Under the pieces are notes generated by a model that had not been told where the DNA came from, did no database searches, and was given only the letters and a program-made list of their open reading frames with translations. From Polyangia bacterium (GTDB taxonomy: Bacteria > Myxococcota_A > Polyangia > Palsa-1104), in NCBI GenBank assembly GCA_039923495.1, contig JBDTCO010000006.1:35066-99065 (forward strand): 64,000 nucleotides of DNA, written 5' to 3'. The position numbers and the translations under genes are program-made. Within the stretch, counting starts at the first letter, position 1; the number at the start of each line of letters is the position of its first letter. This document shows positions 18,166 through 59,108 of the stretch, one piece after another.

Positions 18166-18324
18166 ATGTGTCGAAGAGTCGAGTGTTCAGTTTGCAAGAA
18201 GCCCACGTACGCGGGCTGCGGGAAGCACGTGGAGCAGGTGCTTGGGGACGTGCCGACGAAGGAGCGGTGTACGTGTGAGCGCGTGGCTAGCGCAGGCTGG
18301 CTCGCGCGTCTGCTCGGCAGGTGA
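18166..18324 (+). CDS. small Cys-rich (zinc-ribbon-like) protein, 52 aa
   Basis: GGGAGGGG RBS at 18153-18160 then ATG; MCRRVECSVCKKPTYAGCGKHVEQVLGDVPTKERCTCE with 7 Cys and 1 His; below the ORF-track length cut-off; its 3' end overlaps the convergent sigma factor by about 38 nt. Confidence 0.3.
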   Translation: MCRRVECSVCKKPTYAGCGKHVEQVLGDVPTKERCTCERVASAGWLARLLGR

Positions 18325-18991
18325 GCGTGGGGTCGCCCTCGAGGGAACGCGCGGACGCATCGACGACGTCGGCCGGCCTCGCGTCGATGAGAGGTGCGAG
18401 CGCAGCCCGCATCGCGGCGCGCGCGCGGTGGAGTCGGCTCTTCACCGCGTCGACCGACGCGCCAACGACCGCGGCCACCTCGGGTGCGGTGAGGCCCTCG
18501 CCATCGCGCAGGACGAGGACCTCACGCTGCGCGGGATCGAGCGTCGCGAGGGCCCGGAGCATCGCACGCTCGATCTGGCGGCTCGCCGCGGACGCCTCGG
18601 GATCGGGCGCGGACGTGGCGAGGTCGCGGGCCTCGTCGAGCGAAGCCTCGTCGAGCGGCGCGAACTTCGAGCGACGGTGGCGCTTGATGCAGAAGCTGCG
18701 CGCGATCGTGTACATCCACGTCGAGAGCGACGCCCCTCCGCGGAAGTCGCGGATCGTGCGCGCCGCAGCGATGAGCGTCTCCTGCAGGACCTCGCTCGCG
18801 TCCTGTGGGTCGCGACACATGCGCATACCGAACCGATACACGCGCGGCTCGTAGCGGGCGAGGAGTTGCTCCAGCGCACGGCGATCGCCCGTACGACTCG
18901 CGGCCAGCAGCTGTTCGTCGGTGTGCACGAGCGTGGAGTGTAGCCGAACCCGCGGTTTGCGGTACCGGCACGGCCTGTGCTCGATGTCCAC
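18287..18991 (-). CDS. ECF-family RNA polymerase sigma factor
   Basis: Region 2 (LLARYEPRVYRFGMRMCRDPQDASEVLQETLIAA) and region 4 (LTAPEVAAVVGASVDAVKSRLHRAR); start may be GTG 18928 (VHTDEQLLAAS) rather than ATG 18991. Confidence 0.75.
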   Translation of the reverse strand: MDIEHRPCRYRKPRVRLHSTLVHTDEQLLAASRTGDRRALEQLLARYEPRVYRFGMRMCRDPQDASEVLQETLIAAARTIRDFRGGASLSTWMYTIARSFCIKRHRRSKFAPLDEASLDEARDLATSAPDPEASAASRQIERAMLRALATLDPAQREVLVLRDGEGLTAPEVAAVVGASVDAVKSRLHRARAAMRAALAPLIDARPADVVDASARSLEGDPTLTCRADARASLR

Positions 18992-19043
18992 GTGCGCGTC
19001 CCGATCCCGTGAACGAGTGACAGCATTCGGTTCCGACAGCGGC

Positions 19044-19724
19044 CTAGCTCACGTGCCCGATGCGGATGCGGCGGACGTCGTGCTGCTGCTCGATCTCGGC
19101 GATCAAGTTCTCGAGGCCGAGCTCGCGAGGAAACGTCACGTCGAGCGTGACGTCGAGGTGCCGGTCGGCGACGTGACGATCGTAGCGGAGCGTCGTGAGC
19201 GTCACGCCGCGTGCCCCGAGTGCTGCTGCGATGTCGGCGAGCTTCCCGTCGGGTCCGAGCATGAGCTCGACGTGACGACGGAGCTGGCGGTCGTCCTTGT
19301 CCTCGAAGCGTCGCAGCAAGGTGAGCGCGATGACGCCGCAGACCGTGACGAAGCAGGCGACGGGGTACATCCCTGCGCCGGACGCCATGCCGATGGCGCC
19401 GACCAGCCACAGCCCGGCCGCGGTCGTGAGGCCCTGGATCGAAGTGCCCTGCCGCAGGATCGCGCCACCGGCGAGGAAGCCGATGCCCGTGACGATCGAA
19501 GCCGCGATGCGCGAGGGATCGATCGCGACCAGGTCGGTCGAGTGGTAGTGCTGCGCGAAGACGAAGTTGGTGGAGACCACCATGAAGGTCGCCGACGCGA
19601 GCGCCACGAGCATGTGCGTTCGTAGACCCGCCGGACGACCATGGCGGTCGCGCTCGTAGCCGATGATGCCGCCGAGCGACATCCCGATGACGATGCGAAG
19701 CAGCAACGTGGCGAAGGGTTCCAT
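19044..19724 (-). CDS. mgtC: MgtC/SapB-family membrane protein
   Basis: MEPFATLLLRIVIGMSLGGIIGYERD... multi-TM N-domain plus soluble C-terminal domain typical of MgtC. Confidence 0.75.
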   Translation of the reverse strand: MEPFATLLLRIVIGMSLGGIIGYERDRHGRPAGLRTHMLVALASATFMVVSTNFVFAQHYHSTDLVAIDPSRIAASIVTGIGFLAGGAILRQGTSIQGLTTAAGLWLVGAIGMASGAGMYPVACFVTVCGVIALTLLRRFEDKDDRQLRRHVELMLGPDGKLADIAAALGARGVTLTTLRYDRHVADRHLDVTLDVTFPRELGLENLIAEIEQQHDVRRIRIGHVS

Positions 19725-24508: not shown

Positions 24509-24696
24509 GGTGATTGCTCCCTGGCGATGCTCTGCCGCCTTCATCTGCTGCGAGGATGGGGCCACCTTCGCTGCCGCGCCGCGTGGCATGCCGTCCGTGC
24601 GCCGGACGTGCGCGTCCGGTGGGCGGACGGTCTCGGACACCGATGCTGCGATCTCCAGCGCTTGCGCCTGGCGACGTGCTTGCAGCGGCCTGTCCC

Positions 24697-25320
24697 ATGA
24701 ACGACGCGCTCGTTGCTCGCCTCGCGCTCCGCGGGGTCGACGCCCTCTCGGACGCCGAGCTCCTCGCGGTCGTGTGCAGCTGGCCCGTGGACGAATCGCA
24801 GCGGCTGCTCGATGGCGAGCCACCGATGAAGCGACGCGGCGACGATCCGCAGCTCCGCATCACGGCGCTGCTCTCGCTCGCGCGCCGCCGCGATCGACCG
24901 GTCGCCGAGCTCCCGACGCTCGACAGCGCGGCGGCCGTGGCGGCGCTGCTGTTCGAGCTCGGCCACGCGGAGGTCGAGGAGCTGCACGCGCTCGCGCTCG
25001 ACTCGCGGAACCGACTCGTGCGCCGCGTCGTGGTCGCGCGCGGTGCGGTGAACCAGGTGGCCACGTCGGCGCGCGAGGTGTTCCGGCCGCTCGTGCTCGC
25101 GGGCGCGACGCGAGCCATCGTCGTGCACAACCATCCGAGCGGCGATGCGCAGCCCAGCCCCGAAGATCGGCAGCTCACCAGTCGACTCGGCGCGGCCGGT
25201 GAGCTCCTCGGGATCGCGCTGCTCGATCACGTCATCGTCGCCAGCGGGGGATATTTCAGCTTTGCGGAGGAGGGCGGCTCGCCGCTCCGTCGTCAGGGCG
25301 CTCGACGTGCGAATCGCTGA
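24697..25320 (+). CDS. radC: RadC-family JAMM-motif protein
   Basis: Internal Met MNDALVARLALRGVDALSDAELLAVV (HhH-like N-term) and JAMM motif VVHNHPSGDAQPSPEDRQLT. Confidence 0.75.
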   Translation: MNDALVARLALRGVDALSDAELLAVVCSWPVDESQRLLDGEPPMKRRGDDPQLRITALLSLARRRDRPVAELPTLDSAAAVAALLFELGHAEVEELHALALDSRNRLVRRVVVARGAVNQVATSAREVFRPLVLAGATRAIVVHNHPSGDAQPSPEDRQLTSRLGAAGELLGIALLDHVIVASGGYFSFAEEGGSPLRRQGARRANR

Positions 25321-25368: not shown

Positions 25369-26343
25369 GTGCGCACCCCCCTCATCACGATCTTCCTGGC
25401 GCTCGTTGCGGTGCTTTGTCTCGGTGCTGGCCGCGCAGAAGCGCAGGCCGACTACGTCGGTACGCGCGCGCTCGGCATGGGCGAGGCACTGCGCGCGAAC
25501 GCCGCCGGTGCGTCCGCCATCCTCCTCAATCCGTCGGGCATGTCGCTGTCGCGAGGCTACGTCGTCGAGGCGGGCTATGGCATTCGCGTGGAGGACGTCG
25601 GTCACCACGCGTTCGTGGCCATCGTCGACTCGGTCACCTCGCGTGTCGCCGCCGGCCTCTACTACGAGTACATCCATGCGAACCCGAAGCTCGGCTTCGA
25701 CTGGGCCGGCGGCCGTGTCGCCGACGACAAGCTGACGCGCAGCGGCCACGCGGCCGGCATCTCGCTGTCGATCGCGCTCGGCGAGCGCTTCCTGCTCGGC
25801 GCGAGCGTGAAGTACCTGCACTTCGACACCAACGCGCCGCTGCCCGCCGGTACGCACCCCTCCAAGCTCAGTTTAGATCACATCAACGGCGTGACGTTCG
25901 ATGTCGGTGCCACCTTCAAGCTCCATCCCAAGTTCCAGATCGCTGCCGTCGGTTACAACCTCTGGAACCACGGGAGCCGCGAGACGCCGACCTCGGCGGG
26001 CTTCGGCCTGTCGTTCATCCCCATCCCCACGCTGCTCATCAACTTCGACGGCGTGGCCAACTTCACGGGGTACAAGACGCTCGTGGTCACCGACGATCCC
26101 AGCGTCGTGAAGTACAAGTTCAAGCCGACCGGCCGCTTCGGCCCCGGCATCGAGTGGCTCATCGCCAGCAAGGTCCCTGTCCGCGCGGGCTTCGTGTACG
26201 ACACCGGCCTCAACGCGGCGTACGTCACCGCAGGCACGGGCTACTTCGGTCAGTCGTTCGCGGTCGACCTCAGCTACCGCGGCAAGGTCACGGGCGGCGT
26301 CGAGAACTTCCTCATGATCGGTCTCCGCCTCTTCATCAATTAG
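25369..26343 (+). CDS. outer-membrane beta-barrel protein (porin-like), hypothetical
   Basis: Signal peptide; alternating hydrophobic beta-strand pattern; C-terminal LRLFIN ending in aromatic/hydrophobic residues. Confidence 0.55.
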   Translation: MRTPLITIFLALVAVLCLGAGRAEAQADYVGTRALGMGEALRANAAGASAILLNPSGMSLSRGYVVEAGYGIRVEDVGHHAFVAIVDSVTSRVAAGLYYEYIHANPKLGFDWAGGRVADDKLTRSGHAAGISLSIALGERFLLGASVKYLHFDTNAPLPAGTHPSKLSLDHINGVTFDVGATFKLHPKFQIAAVGYNLWNHGSRETPTSAGFGLSFIPIPTLLINFDGVANFTGYKTLVVTDDPSVVKYKFKPTGRFGPGIEWLIASKVPVRAGFVYDTGLNAAYVTAGTGYFGQSFAVDLSYRGKVTGGVENFLMIGLRLFIN

Positions 26344-26348
26344 ATCGT

Positions 26349-26385
26349 GGGGCATCGCGTCCGCAGGCCTGCGTGCGTCTGCCCC
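26349..26385 (+). terminator. GC-rich stem-loop after the beta-barrel gene
   Basis: ggggcatcgcgtccgcaggcctgcgtgcgtctgcccc has outer stem ggggca/tgcccc and inner gcag/ctgc; starts 6 nt after the stop. Confidence 0.4.
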
Positions 26386-26433
26386 GTCGCGAGGCGTGTG
26401 CACCCCGTGGTAGAGTCGTAACGGGGGTGCGGG

Positions 26434-27738
26434 ATGGCCGAGTTCGAGATCGCTGCCGGCGTTGGGGAACAGCGCGTTCCGGTGGTTCCCGACGAGACTC
26501 GGCCTGCGAAGGCGTCTACCGCAGCGGCGGGTCGAGCGGCGGTGCAACGCATGCTCGTCCATACCGAACACACAGGCCTCAACCTTCGTTCGGCTCCTAG
26601 CACCGCGGCCGACGTACTCGGGACGCTCGTACGGGGCTCCGAGGTCGAGACATCCGGCGCGCCCGAGAGCGGCTTCGTCGCGGTGAATGATACCGCTTCG
26701 GGAAAGCGCGGCTGGGCCTCCACGAGTTACTTGCGCGCAGTTCCGTCGGGCTTCAGTCGCCCGCCGCTGACGTTGCCGCCCGCGAAGCCGCCCGCAGTTG
26801 CAGGGGCGATCGCAGCCCACGTCGTCAGCCAGACGCTTCCACGAGCCGCCCAGGACAATACTCGCGTCGCGATGACGCCGAGGTTGCTCTCCGCTGCCGT
26901 GAACGTGTCCGCGTTGCCGAAGGACGATCACAAGTACGAGACGATCGCCGGACGCGCGTTCGTGAAGGGCGCTGGCGATGCGAGCGACATCGACCCGAAC
27001 GACGTCGCACAAGGCGGGCTCGGTGATTGTTACTTCCTCTCGGCGGCGGCCGCCGTCGCGCGCGCGAACCCCGAGCTCATCCGGCGACTCATCAAGCAGG
27101 TCGGACCGCATGCCTACGAGGTCACGCTCTACGGGGAGGATCACTTCTGGTCGTCGAGCACGCCGCACAAGTTCGTCGTCAGTGACCAGTTTGCCACCGA
27201 TGGGCACGGGCACGCCGTCTATGCACAACCGGGTGACGTCGGTCGGGAGGGTCCGGAGCTCTGGGTGATGCTCCTCGAGAAGGCCTTCGCCACGATGAAG
27301 GGCAGCTCGAAGGCGCTCGAAGGCGGCCTCGGCTCCACCGGGCTCGGGCTCTTGCTCCAGGGCGGCGGCAAGGACTACCAGACCGGAGACTACACGCCCG
27401 ACCAGCTCATGAAGCTCATCAACGACGCGATGCACGCGCACCTGCCGGTGACGACCGGAACGGGGGTGGTGATCAGCAATGGGGCCTCCTTACTCGACGA
27501 GCTGAAGGCGAAACATCCGTCGCTGCCGGACTGGTTCATCAGCAAGGAGAAAGAGCGGCAGCTCGCAGCGATGGCGAAGGTCGGTGCGGTACAGCCGCAC
27601 GAGTACTCGATCGCCAGCATCGATCTCAAGACACGGCACGTGAAGATCCAGAACCCATGGGGTTTCGCCCACCTCGATCTCTCGTTCGAGGACTACAAGG
27701 CAGCATTCACCGAGTTCTCGATCGGCGCTGCCCAATGA
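26434..27738 (+). CDS. calpain-like (C2-family) cysteine protease with N-terminal bacterial SH3-like domain
   Basis: Active-site Cys motif QGGLGDCYFLSAAAAVA (calpain QG.LGDCW.LAA); candidate His (GHGHAVY) and Asn (QNPWG) sites; N-terminal LNLRSAPS...GWASTSYL resembles SH3b. Confidence 0.7.
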   Translation: MAEFEIAAGVGEQRVPVVPDETRPAKASTAAAGRAAVQRMLVHTEHTGLNLRSAPSTAADVLGTLVRGSEVETSGAPESGFVAVNDTASGKRGWASTSYLRAVPSGFSRPPLTLPPAKPPAVAGAIAAHVVSQTLPRAAQDNTRVAMTPRLLSAAVNVSALPKDDHKYETIAGRAFVKGAGDASDIDPNDVAQGGLGDCYFLSAAAAVARANPELIRRLIKQVGPHAYEVTLYGEDHFWSSSTPHKFVVSDQFATDGHGHAVYAQPGDVGREGPELWVMLLEKAFATMKGSSKALEGGLGSTGLGLLLQGGGKDYQTGDYTPDQLMKLINDAMHAHLPVTTGTGVVISNGASLLDELKAKHPSLPDWFISKEKERQLAAMAKVGAVQPHEYSIASIDLKTRHVKIQNPWGFAHLDLSFEDYKAAFTEFSIGAAQ

Positions 27739-28103
27739 GATGGGCGGCGCCTCTCACTGCGCTCCTGCTCTCCGCCTGCAGCACGCACTCGTCCGCCGCC
27801 TCCCCTGTACAAGGAAACTCCGTGACAGAAGAACGCTTGGAGCTCGTCTCGACGACGGTCGCGTGGATCGGCGATGCCCGATGCGGGATCGGCAACATCC
27901 ATCGTGCGAGCTACGTCGACGGCACGGGACGGTCGCAGGAGGGCCTCGTGGTCGACCTGCTCCCTGCTCCCTCTGCCGGTGAGAAGGAGCGTGTCTTCTC
28001 CGTCGGCAAGGACAGCTCGTTCGAGCTCGGCGGCGCACGCTGGGTGGTGCTGAGCATCGAACCCGGCACCCGCGGCAGGGTCACCCTTCGCAAGACCCGC
28101 TGA
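27735..28103 (+). CDS. small lipoprotein start-coupled to the calpain-like gene
   Basis: ATG overlaps the calpain stop (ATGA); signal and lipobox MRWAAPLTALLLSACS; 122 aa; no family recognised. Confidence 0.5.
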   Translation: MRWAAPLTALLLSACSTHSSAASPVQGNSVTEERLELVSTTVAWIGDARCGIGNIHRASYVDGTGRSQEGLVVDLLPAPSAGEKERVFSVGKDSSFELGGARWVVLSIEPGTRGRVTLRKTR

Positions 28104-28175
28104 GCTTTTCCGGGTCGTGACGCATCGGGAACTTTTCCTGATGCGCGGTGTCTGCTCGGGTAAGGTGCGGGCTCC

Positions 28176-28787
28176 ATGAGCGAAGCCGCAGGGCCGCTGC
28201 AAGCGATACGCGAGGCGCTGCTCATCCGGCGGCTCCGGCAGCGCGACGAGAAGGCGTTCGAAGAGGTCGTCGTGCTGTACCGCGACAAGGTCTTCGGGCT
28301 CGTGCTGCGGATGGTAGGCAACCGCGAGGAGGCCGACGACCTGTCGCAGGAGGTCTTCATCACGGTGCTGAAGTCGATCCACACGTTCCGTGGCGACTCG
28401 AAGTTCTCGACGTGGCTCTATCGCATCGCGTCCAACCACACCAAGAACCGCATGAAGTACCTGCACCGTCGGGCCTACAAGACCACGGGCGAGCTCGACG
28501 AGGCGGCCGAGCATGCGATGACGCGCGGCGATGCCCAGGCGAAGGGTCGCGAGCAGACGCCCGAGTCGGCGATGGCGGGCCGGCAGATCGATCGAGTGGT
28601 GCAGGACGCGATCGCGCAGCTCGACGACGACCACCGCGAGATCATCGTGCTGCGCGACATGGAAGAGCTGTCGTACGAGGAGATCGTCGAGATCACCGGG
28701 CTCGCGGAGGGCACCGTGAAGTCCAGGCTGCACCGCGCGCGAACCGCCTTGAAGGAGCACGTGCAGAAGCGGCTCGGTGAGGGGTAA
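28176..28787 (+). CDS. ECF-family RNA polymerase sigma factor (RpoE-like)
   Basis: Region 2 FEEVVVLYRDKVFGLVLRMVGNREEADDLSQEVFI and region 4 LSYEEIVEITGLAEGTVKSRLHRAR. Confidence 0.85.
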   Translation: MSEAAGPLQAIREALLIRRLRQRDEKAFEEVVVLYRDKVFGLVLRMVGNREEADDLSQEVFITVLKSIHTFRGDSKFSTWLYRIASNHTKNRMKYLHRRAYKTTGELDEAAEHAMTRGDAQAKGREQTPESAMAGRQIDRVVQDAIAQLDDDHREIIVLRDMEELSYEEIVEITGLAEGTVKSRLHRARTALKEHVQKRLGEG

Positions 28788-28797
28788 CGTGAGCGCG

Positions 28798-29148
28798 ATG
28801 GACCACGAGGCCACCCAGGCGCTGTTCTCCGCCTACGTCGATGGCGAGCTCACCGCCGCCGAGCGCGCCGTCGTGGACGCGCACCTCGCCGGCTGTGAGG
28901 CGTGCACCGCCGAGCTCGCGACGTTCCGCTCGACGCTCGCGGCGATGCGCGGCGCCGTGCCGGTCGCACCGCCCGATGCGTTCATGGACGAGCTGAAGGC
29001 GCAGATTCGCGCGCGCTCGAGAGGCCGCTTCTTCGGCGCGCGTCGTCGCGGCTACGGCCCCGAGATCGCGTCGCTCGTCACGCTGCTCATCGCGGTCGGC
29101 GTGTACGTGCTGCTCTCGGTGATGCAGCCGACGTGGCTTCTTCGCTGA
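28798..29148 (+). CDS. zinc-binding (ZAS-type) anti-sigma factor with C-terminal TM helix
   Basis: MDHEATQALFSAYVDGELTAAE...HLAGCEAC (HxxxCxxC) then TM IASLVTLLIAVGVYVLLSV; starts within a few nt of the sigma factor stop (alternative GTG at 28789). Confidence 0.7.
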   Translation: MDHEATQALFSAYVDGELTAAERAVVDAHLAGCEACTAELATFRSTLAAMRGAVPVAPPDAFMDELKAQIRARSRGRFFGARRRGYGPEIASLVTLLIAVGVYVLLSVMQPTWLLR

Positions 29149-58236: not shown

Positions 58237-58331
58237 ACACACGCGTCGTCACCGGTACAATTTGAAGGGCTCCGTCGGACCGCGTACACTTCGCAGCGCG
58301 GTGAGCGTGTGAGCGCCTCGGCGCAAACCAC

Positions 58332-59108
58332 ATGAGCGAATCGAACGAACCGGCCCTGTTGCCGCATCTCCCCGCCGTGTTCAACCTCTGCTCGCGCATG
58401 ACGTTGTCTGCCATCGATGCGCAGCGTGCGACCTACCAGACGTTCCAGCGCGCCGTCATCGGCAAGCCACCCACGGATGCGAACGAGCGCGAGCTGTGGC
58501 TGCTCAAGATCGCGGCGCACCTCGTGACGTCGCGGCTGCCGAGCGAGCCGGAGGTCGACTTCGATCTGCTCGACGACACGCTGCGCTCCGAGGCGACGCG
58601 CACCAACGAGGTCGCGTCGCTCACGTCTCCGCAGCGCGAGTTCCTGCTGTGGGAGCTCAAGCAGGGCTGCATGACCTCGGTCATCAACTGCCTCTCGCCC
58701 GGCGAGCGCGTCGCGTTCGTGTTCTCGTCGGTGATGGGCAAGACTGACGCGGAGGCCGCCATCGCGCTCGACATCAAGGAGAGCGCCTTCAAGGTGCGCC
58801 TCTCGCGCGCGCGCAAGAAGATCGGCGATCACCTCGCGCCGCGCTGCGAGCACATCGATCCGCGCAACCCGTGTCACTGCCCGTCGCGCATCGGGGTCGC
58901 GCTGCGCAAGGGCTTCATCGCGCCGCCGCTCAACGCCGAGGCCACGCTCCGCAAGAACCTTCGGCCGTTCAACAACGAGATCAAGTCGCACGACGCCGTG
59001 GACATCTTCCGCACGCTGCCGCCGGTCGAGGTGCCGGAGGCGCTCGTGCGCCGGATCACCGACTCGCTGCACACCGGAACCTGGGACGACGAGCTCGCGC
59101 AGAAGTAG
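58332..59108 (+). CDS. ECF-like sigma factor with C-terminal Cys/His-rich extension (CorE-like metal-sensing candidate)
   Basis: Region 2-like ATYQTFQRAVIG and region 4 LSPGERVAFVFSSVMGKTDAEAAIALDIKESAFKVRLSRARKKI, then LAPRCEHIDPRNPCHCPSR and about 60 further residues; extra Cys in ELKQGCMTSVINC. Confidence 0.55.
   Translation: MSESNEPALLPHLPAVFNLCSRMTLSAIDAQRATYQTFQRAVIGKPPTDANERELWLLKIAAHLVTSRLPSEPEVDFDLLDDTLRSEATRTNEVASLTSPQREFLLWELKQGCMTSVINCLSPGERVAFVFSSVMGKTDAEAAIALDIKESAFKVRLSRARKKIGDHLAPRCEHIDPRNPCHCPSRIGVALRKGFIAPPLNAEATLRKNLRPFNNEIKSHDAVDIFRTLPPVEVPEALVRRITDSLHTGTWDDELAQK

Follow-up and report, generated by a model that had tools for sequence, protein, structure and literature searches.

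A calpain-type protease gene and an overlapping lipoprotein gene of a Polyangia bacterium as a candidate effector-immunity cassette

Introduction

Why would a bacterium encode a calpain-like cysteine protease in a reading frame that runs directly into that of a small lipoprotein? The question is raised by a 64,000-nucleotide stretch of DNA from a Polyangia bacterium of the Myxococcota, known as a metagenome-assembled genome (104,574-bp contig JBDTCO010000006.1 of assembly GCA_039923495.1, positions 35,066 to 99,065), which was analysed as a whole and is called the window here; coordinates are positions within it unless a locus is named. On the + strand of the window, the open reading frame (ORF) of a protease of peptidase family C2 (26434-27738, 434 residues) overlaps that of a lipoprotein of 122 residues (27735-28103). 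The overlap is the four nucleotides ATGA at 27735-27738, in which the lipoprotein start ATG (27735-27737) lies on the protease stop TGA (27736-27738). We find that this pair recurs as a conserved, coupled and co-diverging module in at least eight bacterial phyla, and we propose, with moderate confidence, that it is a two-gene effector-immunity cassette in which the lipoprotein would act as inhibitor of the protease.

Bacterial homologues of calpains do not have complete calcium sites; they are mostly C-terminal in their proteins, signal peptides are rare among them, and some are fused to WXG100 or Tox-PL (Rawlings 2015, PMC4631099). The same study describes no partner gene for bacterial calpains, and according to it none of them has been biochemically characterised. 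In the literature that we searched, we found no paper linking bacterial calpains with a partner gene and no mention of DUF6406, the Pfam family to which the lipoprotein is remotely related. An effector with a cognate immunity or inhibitor protein is an already known kind of system, and its proposed calpain-DUF6406 members would be new.

Results

The protease and lipoprotein genes form a conserved and coupled pair

A scan of genome contigs with the protease as a single sequence gave no matches, and an alignment-based scan gave 431 confirmed C2 loci among about 185,000 species genomes. The distribution is patchy. We compared 86 loci, namely the window and 85 homologous loci, including 80 genome loci taken from the 431. 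The carriers of these 80 belong to Myxococcota, other Pseudomonadota, Actinomycetota, Chloroflexota (among them Herpetosiphon aurantiacus DSM 785), Bacteroidota (Saprospiraceae and Aureispira), Planctomycetota and others. We searched every six-frame ORF of these loci against a hidden Markov model of the small-protein family to which the lipoprotein belongs. A DUF6406-like ORF was found in 63 of the 86 loci, covering at least eight phyla, always directly 3′ of the C2 gene and on the same strand, and no copy was found away from C2 genes in the flanks of these loci, which reach up to 8-10 kb. Therefore, the pairing is not a product of chance. The reverse check gave the same result: two matches to the small-protein profile, picked without regard to their context, both directly follow the C-terminus of a C2 protein.

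In 41 of 64 pairs the partner start runs into the C2 stop, with an overlap of 4 nt in 34 pairs and of 1 nt in seven, and most of the remaining starts lie no more than 17 nt from the stop. In the distant-homologue loci L003 and L004, precomputed Pfam matches assign DUF6406 to the gene that comes next after C2, and the starts overlap there too. The two proteins have also diverged together, as pairwise identities of C2 domains and of partners are correlated (r = 0.84, Mantel p = 0.001), and the correlation is r = 0.67 where C2 domains are less than 60% identical. Divergence is faster in the partner, with a mean identity of 29% vs 40% for C2 domains. We conclude with high confidence that the protease and its partner are a real, conserved and coupled two-protein module. 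A preliminary description of this DNA had suggested a search for the co-occurrence of the lipoprotein with C2 proteases in other genomes, and the linkage and overlap counted here answer it in favour of the pair.

Some loci depart from the simple arrangement of one protease gene and one partner gene. Two C2-partner pairs stand in tandem in L037 (1173-4496) and L060 (4458-9140), and the second partner of L037 has 202 residues with two DUF6406-like domains. L061 has two tandem C2 genes and a single partner. We also note that ten loci (L007, L012, L023, L026, L043, L045, L064, L070, L075 and L078) are labelled Klebsiella pneumoniae, Enterobacteriaceae or Enterobacterales. The taxonomic labels of these metagenome-assembled genomes (MAGs) look wrong, because the guanine-cytosine (GC) content of the loci is 62-73%.

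The upstream gene encodes a calpain-type protease

The preliminary description had read the larger protein as a calpain-like protease with an SH3b-like N-terminal domain, based on a catalytic-cysteine motif and plausible histidine and asparagine sites, and had noted that a signal peptide is lacking. These points hold. Pfam Peptidase_C2 (PF00648) matches residues 185-413 (26986-27672, + strand) with 79.3 bits against a cut-off of 23.8, and SH3_3 (PF08239) matches residues 47-100 (26572-26733, + strand) with 40.5 bits against a cut-off of 27 (E = 3.2e-10). The catalytic motif QGGLGDCYFLSAAAAVA is found in the protease, and alignment to calpain-9 gives the catalytic residues as Cys199 (27028-27030), His389 (27598-27600) and Asn407 (27652-27654), all on the + strand. 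This triad falls on the catalytic positions of the C2 profile. When the protease was searched with phmmer against PDB sequences, only calpains were matched, and its GDC, HEYS and QNPWG stretches pair with GDC, GHAYS and RNPWG of human calpain-9. Gln193 (oxyanion), Cys199, His389, Asn407 and Trp409 are unchanged throughout an alignment of 36 sequences.

An AlphaFold2 model of the protease has predicted local distance difference test (pLDDT) scores mostly above 90 over residues ~165-434, with a dip to ~70 at residues 341-370. A Foldseek search of the PDB with this model returned calpain cores as the top 40 matches (E ~1e-14), with target-normalised template modelling scores of 0.6-0.65 against isolated calpain protease cores. 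The PDB matches to the protease are mammalian calpains throughout. By family, catalytic triad and two-lobed fold, the last as modelled, the window protein is a predicted calpain-type (C2) protease.

The N-terminal part of the protein is of a different nature. No signal peptide was found in the window protease, whose maximum N-terminal hydrophobicity is 1.0, and a hydrophobic N-terminus occurs in one of 96 complete homologues, where it is unlike a signal peptide. The start of the protein, M-A-E-F-E, is also kept in the homologue P0002 of the 36-sequence alignment. Residues 1-46 (26434-26571, + strand) form a hydrophilic region, a candidate for Sec-independent export or loading; residues 1-27 have pLDDT scores below 50, and the linkers are likewise poorly ordered. 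This region carries the motif AAAGRAAVQRML, which aligns with the LQxxAGNxAVxxLL pattern of many homologues. The pattern is confined to a subset, with nine strict and a few loose matches among 89 C2 ORFs. The SH3_3 domain that follows is shared with the homologues P0002, P0004 and P0005, and by analogy it may bind peptidoglycan in the window protease. The NCBI annotation shortens the protease to 288 residues (P0001), and the SH3b domain is lost in that record.

The downstream gene encodes a lipoprotein remotely related to DUF6406

The smaller ORF, described before as a lipoprotein of 122 residues whose ATG lies on the protease stop, begins MRWAAPLTALLLSAC. Its N-terminus reads MRWAAPLTALLLSA-C15 and contains the lipobox LLSA-C15, found with the pattern [LVI][ASTVI][GAS]C near the N-terminus. 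With a positively charged n-region, a hydrophobic h-region and a lipobox, the protein has the features of an Lgt/LspA substrate and is a predicted lipoprotein. Its parts on the + strand are a signal peptide of residues 1-14, the lipobox Cys15 (27777-27779) and a beta domain of residues 34-121 (27834-28097). The lipoprotein signal is retained in the two closest loci (VLAA-C in L001 and GVGG-C in L002), and in both of these loci the partner start lies on the protease stop as well, with the sequences TGATG and GTGA. The NCBI annotation calls the partner as 93 residues from a GTG (P0115), so that the lipoprotein signal is lost; we favour the ATG at 27735 because the signal is conserved in L001 and L002. 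A longer start at 27657, which would give 148 residues, was also considered and ruled out, since third-position GC is 0.42 in this in-frame upstream extension vs 0.80 from 27735 on.

The AlphaFold2 model of the partner has a pLDDT of 88 and shows an eight-strand all-beta domain. No solved structural relative was found for this model, and neither structure nor profile comparison found similarity to staphostatin or chagasin (I42). The partner alone scores 13.8 bits (E = 0.07) against DUF6406 (PF19944), whose cut-off is 26.9 bits. A profile built from the window partner and P0116 retrieved 92 relatives among 1.84 billion representatives, and DUF6406 is matched at E ≤ 0.01 by 28 of 62 partner relatives. 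The link to DUF6406 thus runs through intermediate sequences and a shared genomic slot. Because its own score is under the cut-off, we call the window partner a remote relative of DUF6406, not a formal member.

Architectures and alternative partners of related proteases

The C2 domain is C-terminal throughout the 96 homologues, with a median of 220 residues from the GDC motif to the end. The N-terminal modules that precede it are short hydrophilic regions, SH3b domains, the core domain of extracellular contractile injection systems (eCIS), Annexin domains, or the long preceding parts of giant proteins. P0022, P0052, P0106 and L012 combine eCIS_core with a C-terminal C2 domain. Annexin matches (E = 1e-20 to 1e-27) together with a C-terminal calpain domain are found in proteins of ~1200-1300 residues in L017, L023, L028 and L067, and three of these four Annexin-C2 proteins are followed by a DUF6406-like partner of the lipoprotein type. 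Giant C2 proteins of ~2000 to more than 2900 residues, several of which extend past the end of their contig, are found in L006, L009, L010, L011 and L012. The L002 protease shares 48% identity with that of the window, and its gene pair is adjoined by a VgrG-like gene matching Phage_base_V (E = 2e-18) and by a PAAR gene (33 bits).

In loci in which no DUF6406-like partner was detected, the slot holds other small genes. Giant C2 genes carry another ORF of 96-110 residues there, which starts with MAFFHPATE and overlaps the stop by 1-4 nt (for example L009, 8759-9088). It matched no Pfam family and may constitute a second family of partners or immunity proteins. In Chloroflexia and Herpetosiphon, the slot is taken by a lipoprotein of 126-128 residues, which in L077 matches DUF6406 weakly. 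A Saprospiraceae MAG provides L080, where the gene after C2 (2319-2654) resembles chagasin (I42), an inhibitor of papain-like cysteine proteases, with E = 2.4e-4 and 21.8 bits against a cut-off of 27.2. A relation between the DUF6406-like family and this chagasin-like partner was considered and ruled out, as hhalign showed no relation between them. Such an exchange of small genes in a slot beside one catalytic domain is typical of genes for immunity proteins or inhibitors. Together, the extended DUF6406 family, the co-divergence and the chagasin-like gene in the L080 slot strengthen the earlier idea that the lipoprotein is a dedicated partner or inhibitor of the protease.

Genomic neighbourhood of the pair

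Genes of the window were called by third-position GC and then scanned against Pfam. GC content is ~69% in the window and 0.655 at positions 26001-28000 (vs ~0.69), and third-position GC is 0.81 in the pair vs ~0.90 in the neighbouring genes. Such lower values in the pair are compatible with its horizontal acquisition. The remainder of the window is housekeeping context. PADLOC gave no match for the protease, the partner and two upstream genes, and a scan of 26200-28400 for sigma-70 promoters and intrinsic terminators found nothing. Directly upstream of the pair are a RadC-like JAB gene (24514-25320) and a gene for an outer-membrane beta-barrel with a signal peptide (25369-26343), which matches a PorV/PorQ family of NCBIfam with E = 9e-16 and 58 bits against a cut-off of 90. 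Other loci showed no tie between the pair and the beta-barrel and JAB genes.

Directly downstream, as the preliminary description had stated, Pfam identifies an extracytoplasmic function (ECF) sigma gene (28176-28787) and a zf-HC2 anti-sigma gene (28777-29148). The 72-nt spacer upstream of the sigma gene contains the motif GGAACTT-N16-TCTG at 28128-28154, the only match in the 64 kb, where 0.02 are expected; by comparison with the sigmaE consensus, this motif resembles an autoregulated promoter of the sigmaE/ECF type. There are three sigma-70 family genes in the window (18290-19048, 28176-28787 and 58305-59105), of which two match the ECF-type domains in full and the third matches sigma-70 region 4 only.

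Discussion

What the pair does may be read from its architecture. Because the coupled pair recurs in at least eight phyla, a protease weapon with a protective inhibitor is the most likely interpretation. The C-terminal position of C2, the eCIS-core, Annexin and giant modules in front of it, and the missing Sec signal argue for an effector-immunity function rather than a housekeeping one. A protease without signal peptide and a lipoprotein partner fit this reading as well, and N-termini of the lipoprotein or a signal-like type are present in 39 of the 64 partners. For the clade of the window, the SH3b domain and the lipoprotein nature of the partner suggest that the action takes place in the cell envelope. 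From these features we infer toxicity, inhibition by the partner, an envelope site of action and an export route, with less confidence in any particular route than in the effector-immunity assignment itself. The module that had been proposed in the preliminary description thus takes a more definite form: its architecture points to an effector-immunity cassette, and the ECF neighbour is probably incidental.

We propose the following course of events. The protease would be made in the cytoplasm without a Sec signal, and its hydrophilic and poorly ordered N-terminus would let it exit by a Sec-independent route, most likely through a phage-tail-like contractile injection system or a type VI-like system whose genes would lie in another part of the genome. 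In the recipient, the SH3b domain may keep the protease on the peptidoglycan, where the C2 core could cleave proteins of the cell envelope. The lipoprotein would be translated in step with the protease through the ATGA overlap, and in the periplasm of the producer it would bind and block protease that arrives from sister cells or leaks from the cell itself.

Several observations weigh against this proposal. The Pfam scan found no genes of type VI secretion systems (T6SS), eCIS or other secretion or injection systems in the 64-kb window, and the export route is therefore unsupported for the source genome. Calpain is not among the polymorphic toxin domains of Zhang et al. 2012 (PMC3482391), a paper that makes no mention of it. 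The window partner is under the DUF6406 cut-off when scored alone, and the chagasin match of L080 is below the Pfam threshold. Finally, 25 of the 64 partners, mostly from Actinomycetota and Chloroflexota and some from alphaproteobacterial MAGs, have no signal peptide. For this reason, the compartment of action seems to vary with the delivery module. Such variation could reflect a protease of broad specificity, or start codons that were called wrongly.

Among the closest parallels to the proposed cassette are systems of interbacterial antagonism. In the T6SS pairs that act in the periplasm, such as Tse1-Tsi1 and Tae-Tai, the effectors are papain-like NlpC/P60 amidases and the immunity proteins are periplasmic proteins or lipoproteins. 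The window pair matches them in gene order and topology, as both have a Cys-His effector of the papain superfamily without Sec signal and a small downstream neutraliser that is periplasmic or a lipoprotein. The differences are that the window protease has a two-lobed calpain C2 core instead of an NlpC/P60 domain, that its partner is DUF6406-like, and that T6SS genes are not found in the window. Cpe1-Cpi1 is a pair of a papain-like cysteine protease toxin, whose cytoplasmic targets are GyrB and ParE, and a cytoplasmic immunity protein (PMC12136450). It resembles the role proposed here in being an interbacterial cysteine protease toxin with a co-evolving adjacent neutraliser, but Cpe1 belongs to another peptidase family, and the partner in the window is a lipoprotein.

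Another parallel is provided by toxins of the Photorhabdus virulence cassette (PVC) type and other eCIS cargo. The PVC-metallopeptidase (Pfam DUF4157/eCIS_core) marks PVC-type polymorphic toxins, and Annexin repeats occur with PVC toxins in Haliangium (Zhang et al. 2012, PMC3482391). Cargo proteins of eCIS begin with a disordered region for loading, carry DUF4157 in some cases and end in an effector that varies at the C-terminus (bioRxiv 10.64898/2026.05.27.728243). Peptidase_C2 itself appears in supplementary lists only, of eCIS-associated genes and of predicted eCIS toxins. The likeness lies in the relatives that join eCIS_core or Annexin to C2, and in the N-terminus of the window protease, which is hydrophilic and modelled with low confidence. 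PVC-type toxins are often without immunity genes (PMC3482391), whereas the window clade has one in the proposed partner. A further difference is that the window protease has no eCIS_core, and eCIS genes are not found in the 64 kb.

The same pair could instead be a digestive or predatory protease that is released to the medium or in vesicles, not injected, with the lipoprotein shielding the envelope of the producer as a self-protecting inhibitor. We consider this rather unlikely. Many of the carriers are predatory or gliding bacteria (Myxococcota, Herpetosiphon, Aureispira and other Saprospiraceae, Oligoflexia), and the lack of an injection system in the window is in line with release. Moreover, the staphopains are a known case of clan CA proteases whose inhibitor gene is co-transcribed, as the staphostatin gene follows directly downstream in the same operon. 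The window pair shares with staphostatin and chagasin systems a clan CA cysteine protease and a dedicated small all-beta protein, presumably an inhibitor, and the L080 partner is chagasin-like. However, the topology in staphylococci is the reverse of that in the window, with the signal peptide on the protease and a cytoplasmic inhibitor, and the DUF6406-like model has no fold match to either staphostatin or chagasin. Release is also hard to reconcile with a protease that carries neither a Sec nor a lipoprotein signal and whose homologues have a hydrophobic N-terminus in one case of 96, while the eCIS-core and giant toxin-like fusions and the VgrG-like and PAAR neighbours in L002 point to delivery by injection.

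It is also conceivable that the lipoprotein helps the protease instead of inhibiting it, for example by assisting its folding, by activating it or by serving as its anchoring receptor at the outer membrane. The coupling and co-divergence show a specific partnership and are silent on whether its effect is positive or negative, and the fold of the partner has no known relative among inhibitors. A helper is nevertheless quite improbable, as a chagasin-like inhibitor occupies the same slot in L080, and a small downstream gene that varies between clades is in the usual position of an immunity gene. In addition, adaptors for secretion are as a rule proteins of the cytoplasm, with genes that often lie upstream, unlike this lipoprotein partner.

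Very improbable, in our view, is that the pair belongs to an ECF sigma signalling module, in which protease and lipoprotein would together detect envelope stress and cut the adjacent anti-sigma factor. A sigma/zf-HC2 pair does directly adjoin the protease-lipoprotein pair in two loci, on the downstream side in the window and on the upstream side in L001. The two sigma factors are 28% identical and the anti-sigma factors have 123 and 271 residues, and because of this low identity and the differing lengths they are not orthologues. The sigma gene of the window is preceded by a sigmaE-like promoter motif of its own, found nowhere else in the 64 kb, and adjacency by chance is likely, as three ECF-type sigma genes are present in the window. 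In L002-L005, the remaining loci annotated for such genes (the flanks of the 80 genome loci were not), no sigma or anti-sigma gene stands beside the pair. That the pair is a cytoplasmic housekeeping calpain-like protease sharing an operon with an unrelated lipoprotein, as the missing export signal and the cytoplasmic location of eukaryotic calpains might suggest, is scarcely credible given its recurrence in at least eight phyla with a conserved overlap, co-divergence and no unpaired copies in the flanks, its patchy distribution (431 loci in ~185,000 species genomes), and its third-position GC (0.81 vs ~0.90).

In eukaryotes, the counterpart of the proposed cassette would be calpain and calpastatin. 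The proteases share the core fold and the Cys/His/Asn triad, and in both cases a dedicated protein inhibitor, in bacteria a presumed one, goes with the protease. Calpastatin differs in being intrinsically disordered and unrelated to DUF6406, and the EF-hand and CIII domains of eukaryotic calpains are not found in the bacterial homologues. We put forward tentatively, and with somewhat less than even confidence, the broader idea that bacterial calpains as a class are injected or exported weapons and not housekeeping enzymes, and that DUF6406 proteins are inhibitors of calpain-type proteases with a new fold. The site of toxin delivery would decide whether such an inhibitor is kept in the cytoplasm or sent to the periplasm as a lipoprotein. 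If this is true, conflict systems of bacteria were the first to combine a calpain core with a dedicated inhibitor, and eukaryotes took over this combination later.

The public records of both genes need correcting, as they omit the SH3b domain of the protease and the lipoprotein signal of the partner. The conserved, coupled and co-diverging C2-DUF6406 pair suggests a protease toxin with its cognate inhibitor and gives a hypothesis of function for both families. If the effector-immunity assignment is true, it would add a new protease toxin family and a new immunity or inhibitor fold to the known bacterial conflict systems, and would provide a natural protein scaffold that inhibits calpain-type proteases. 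It would also explain why bacterial calpain domains are C-terminal and why their signal peptides are missing.

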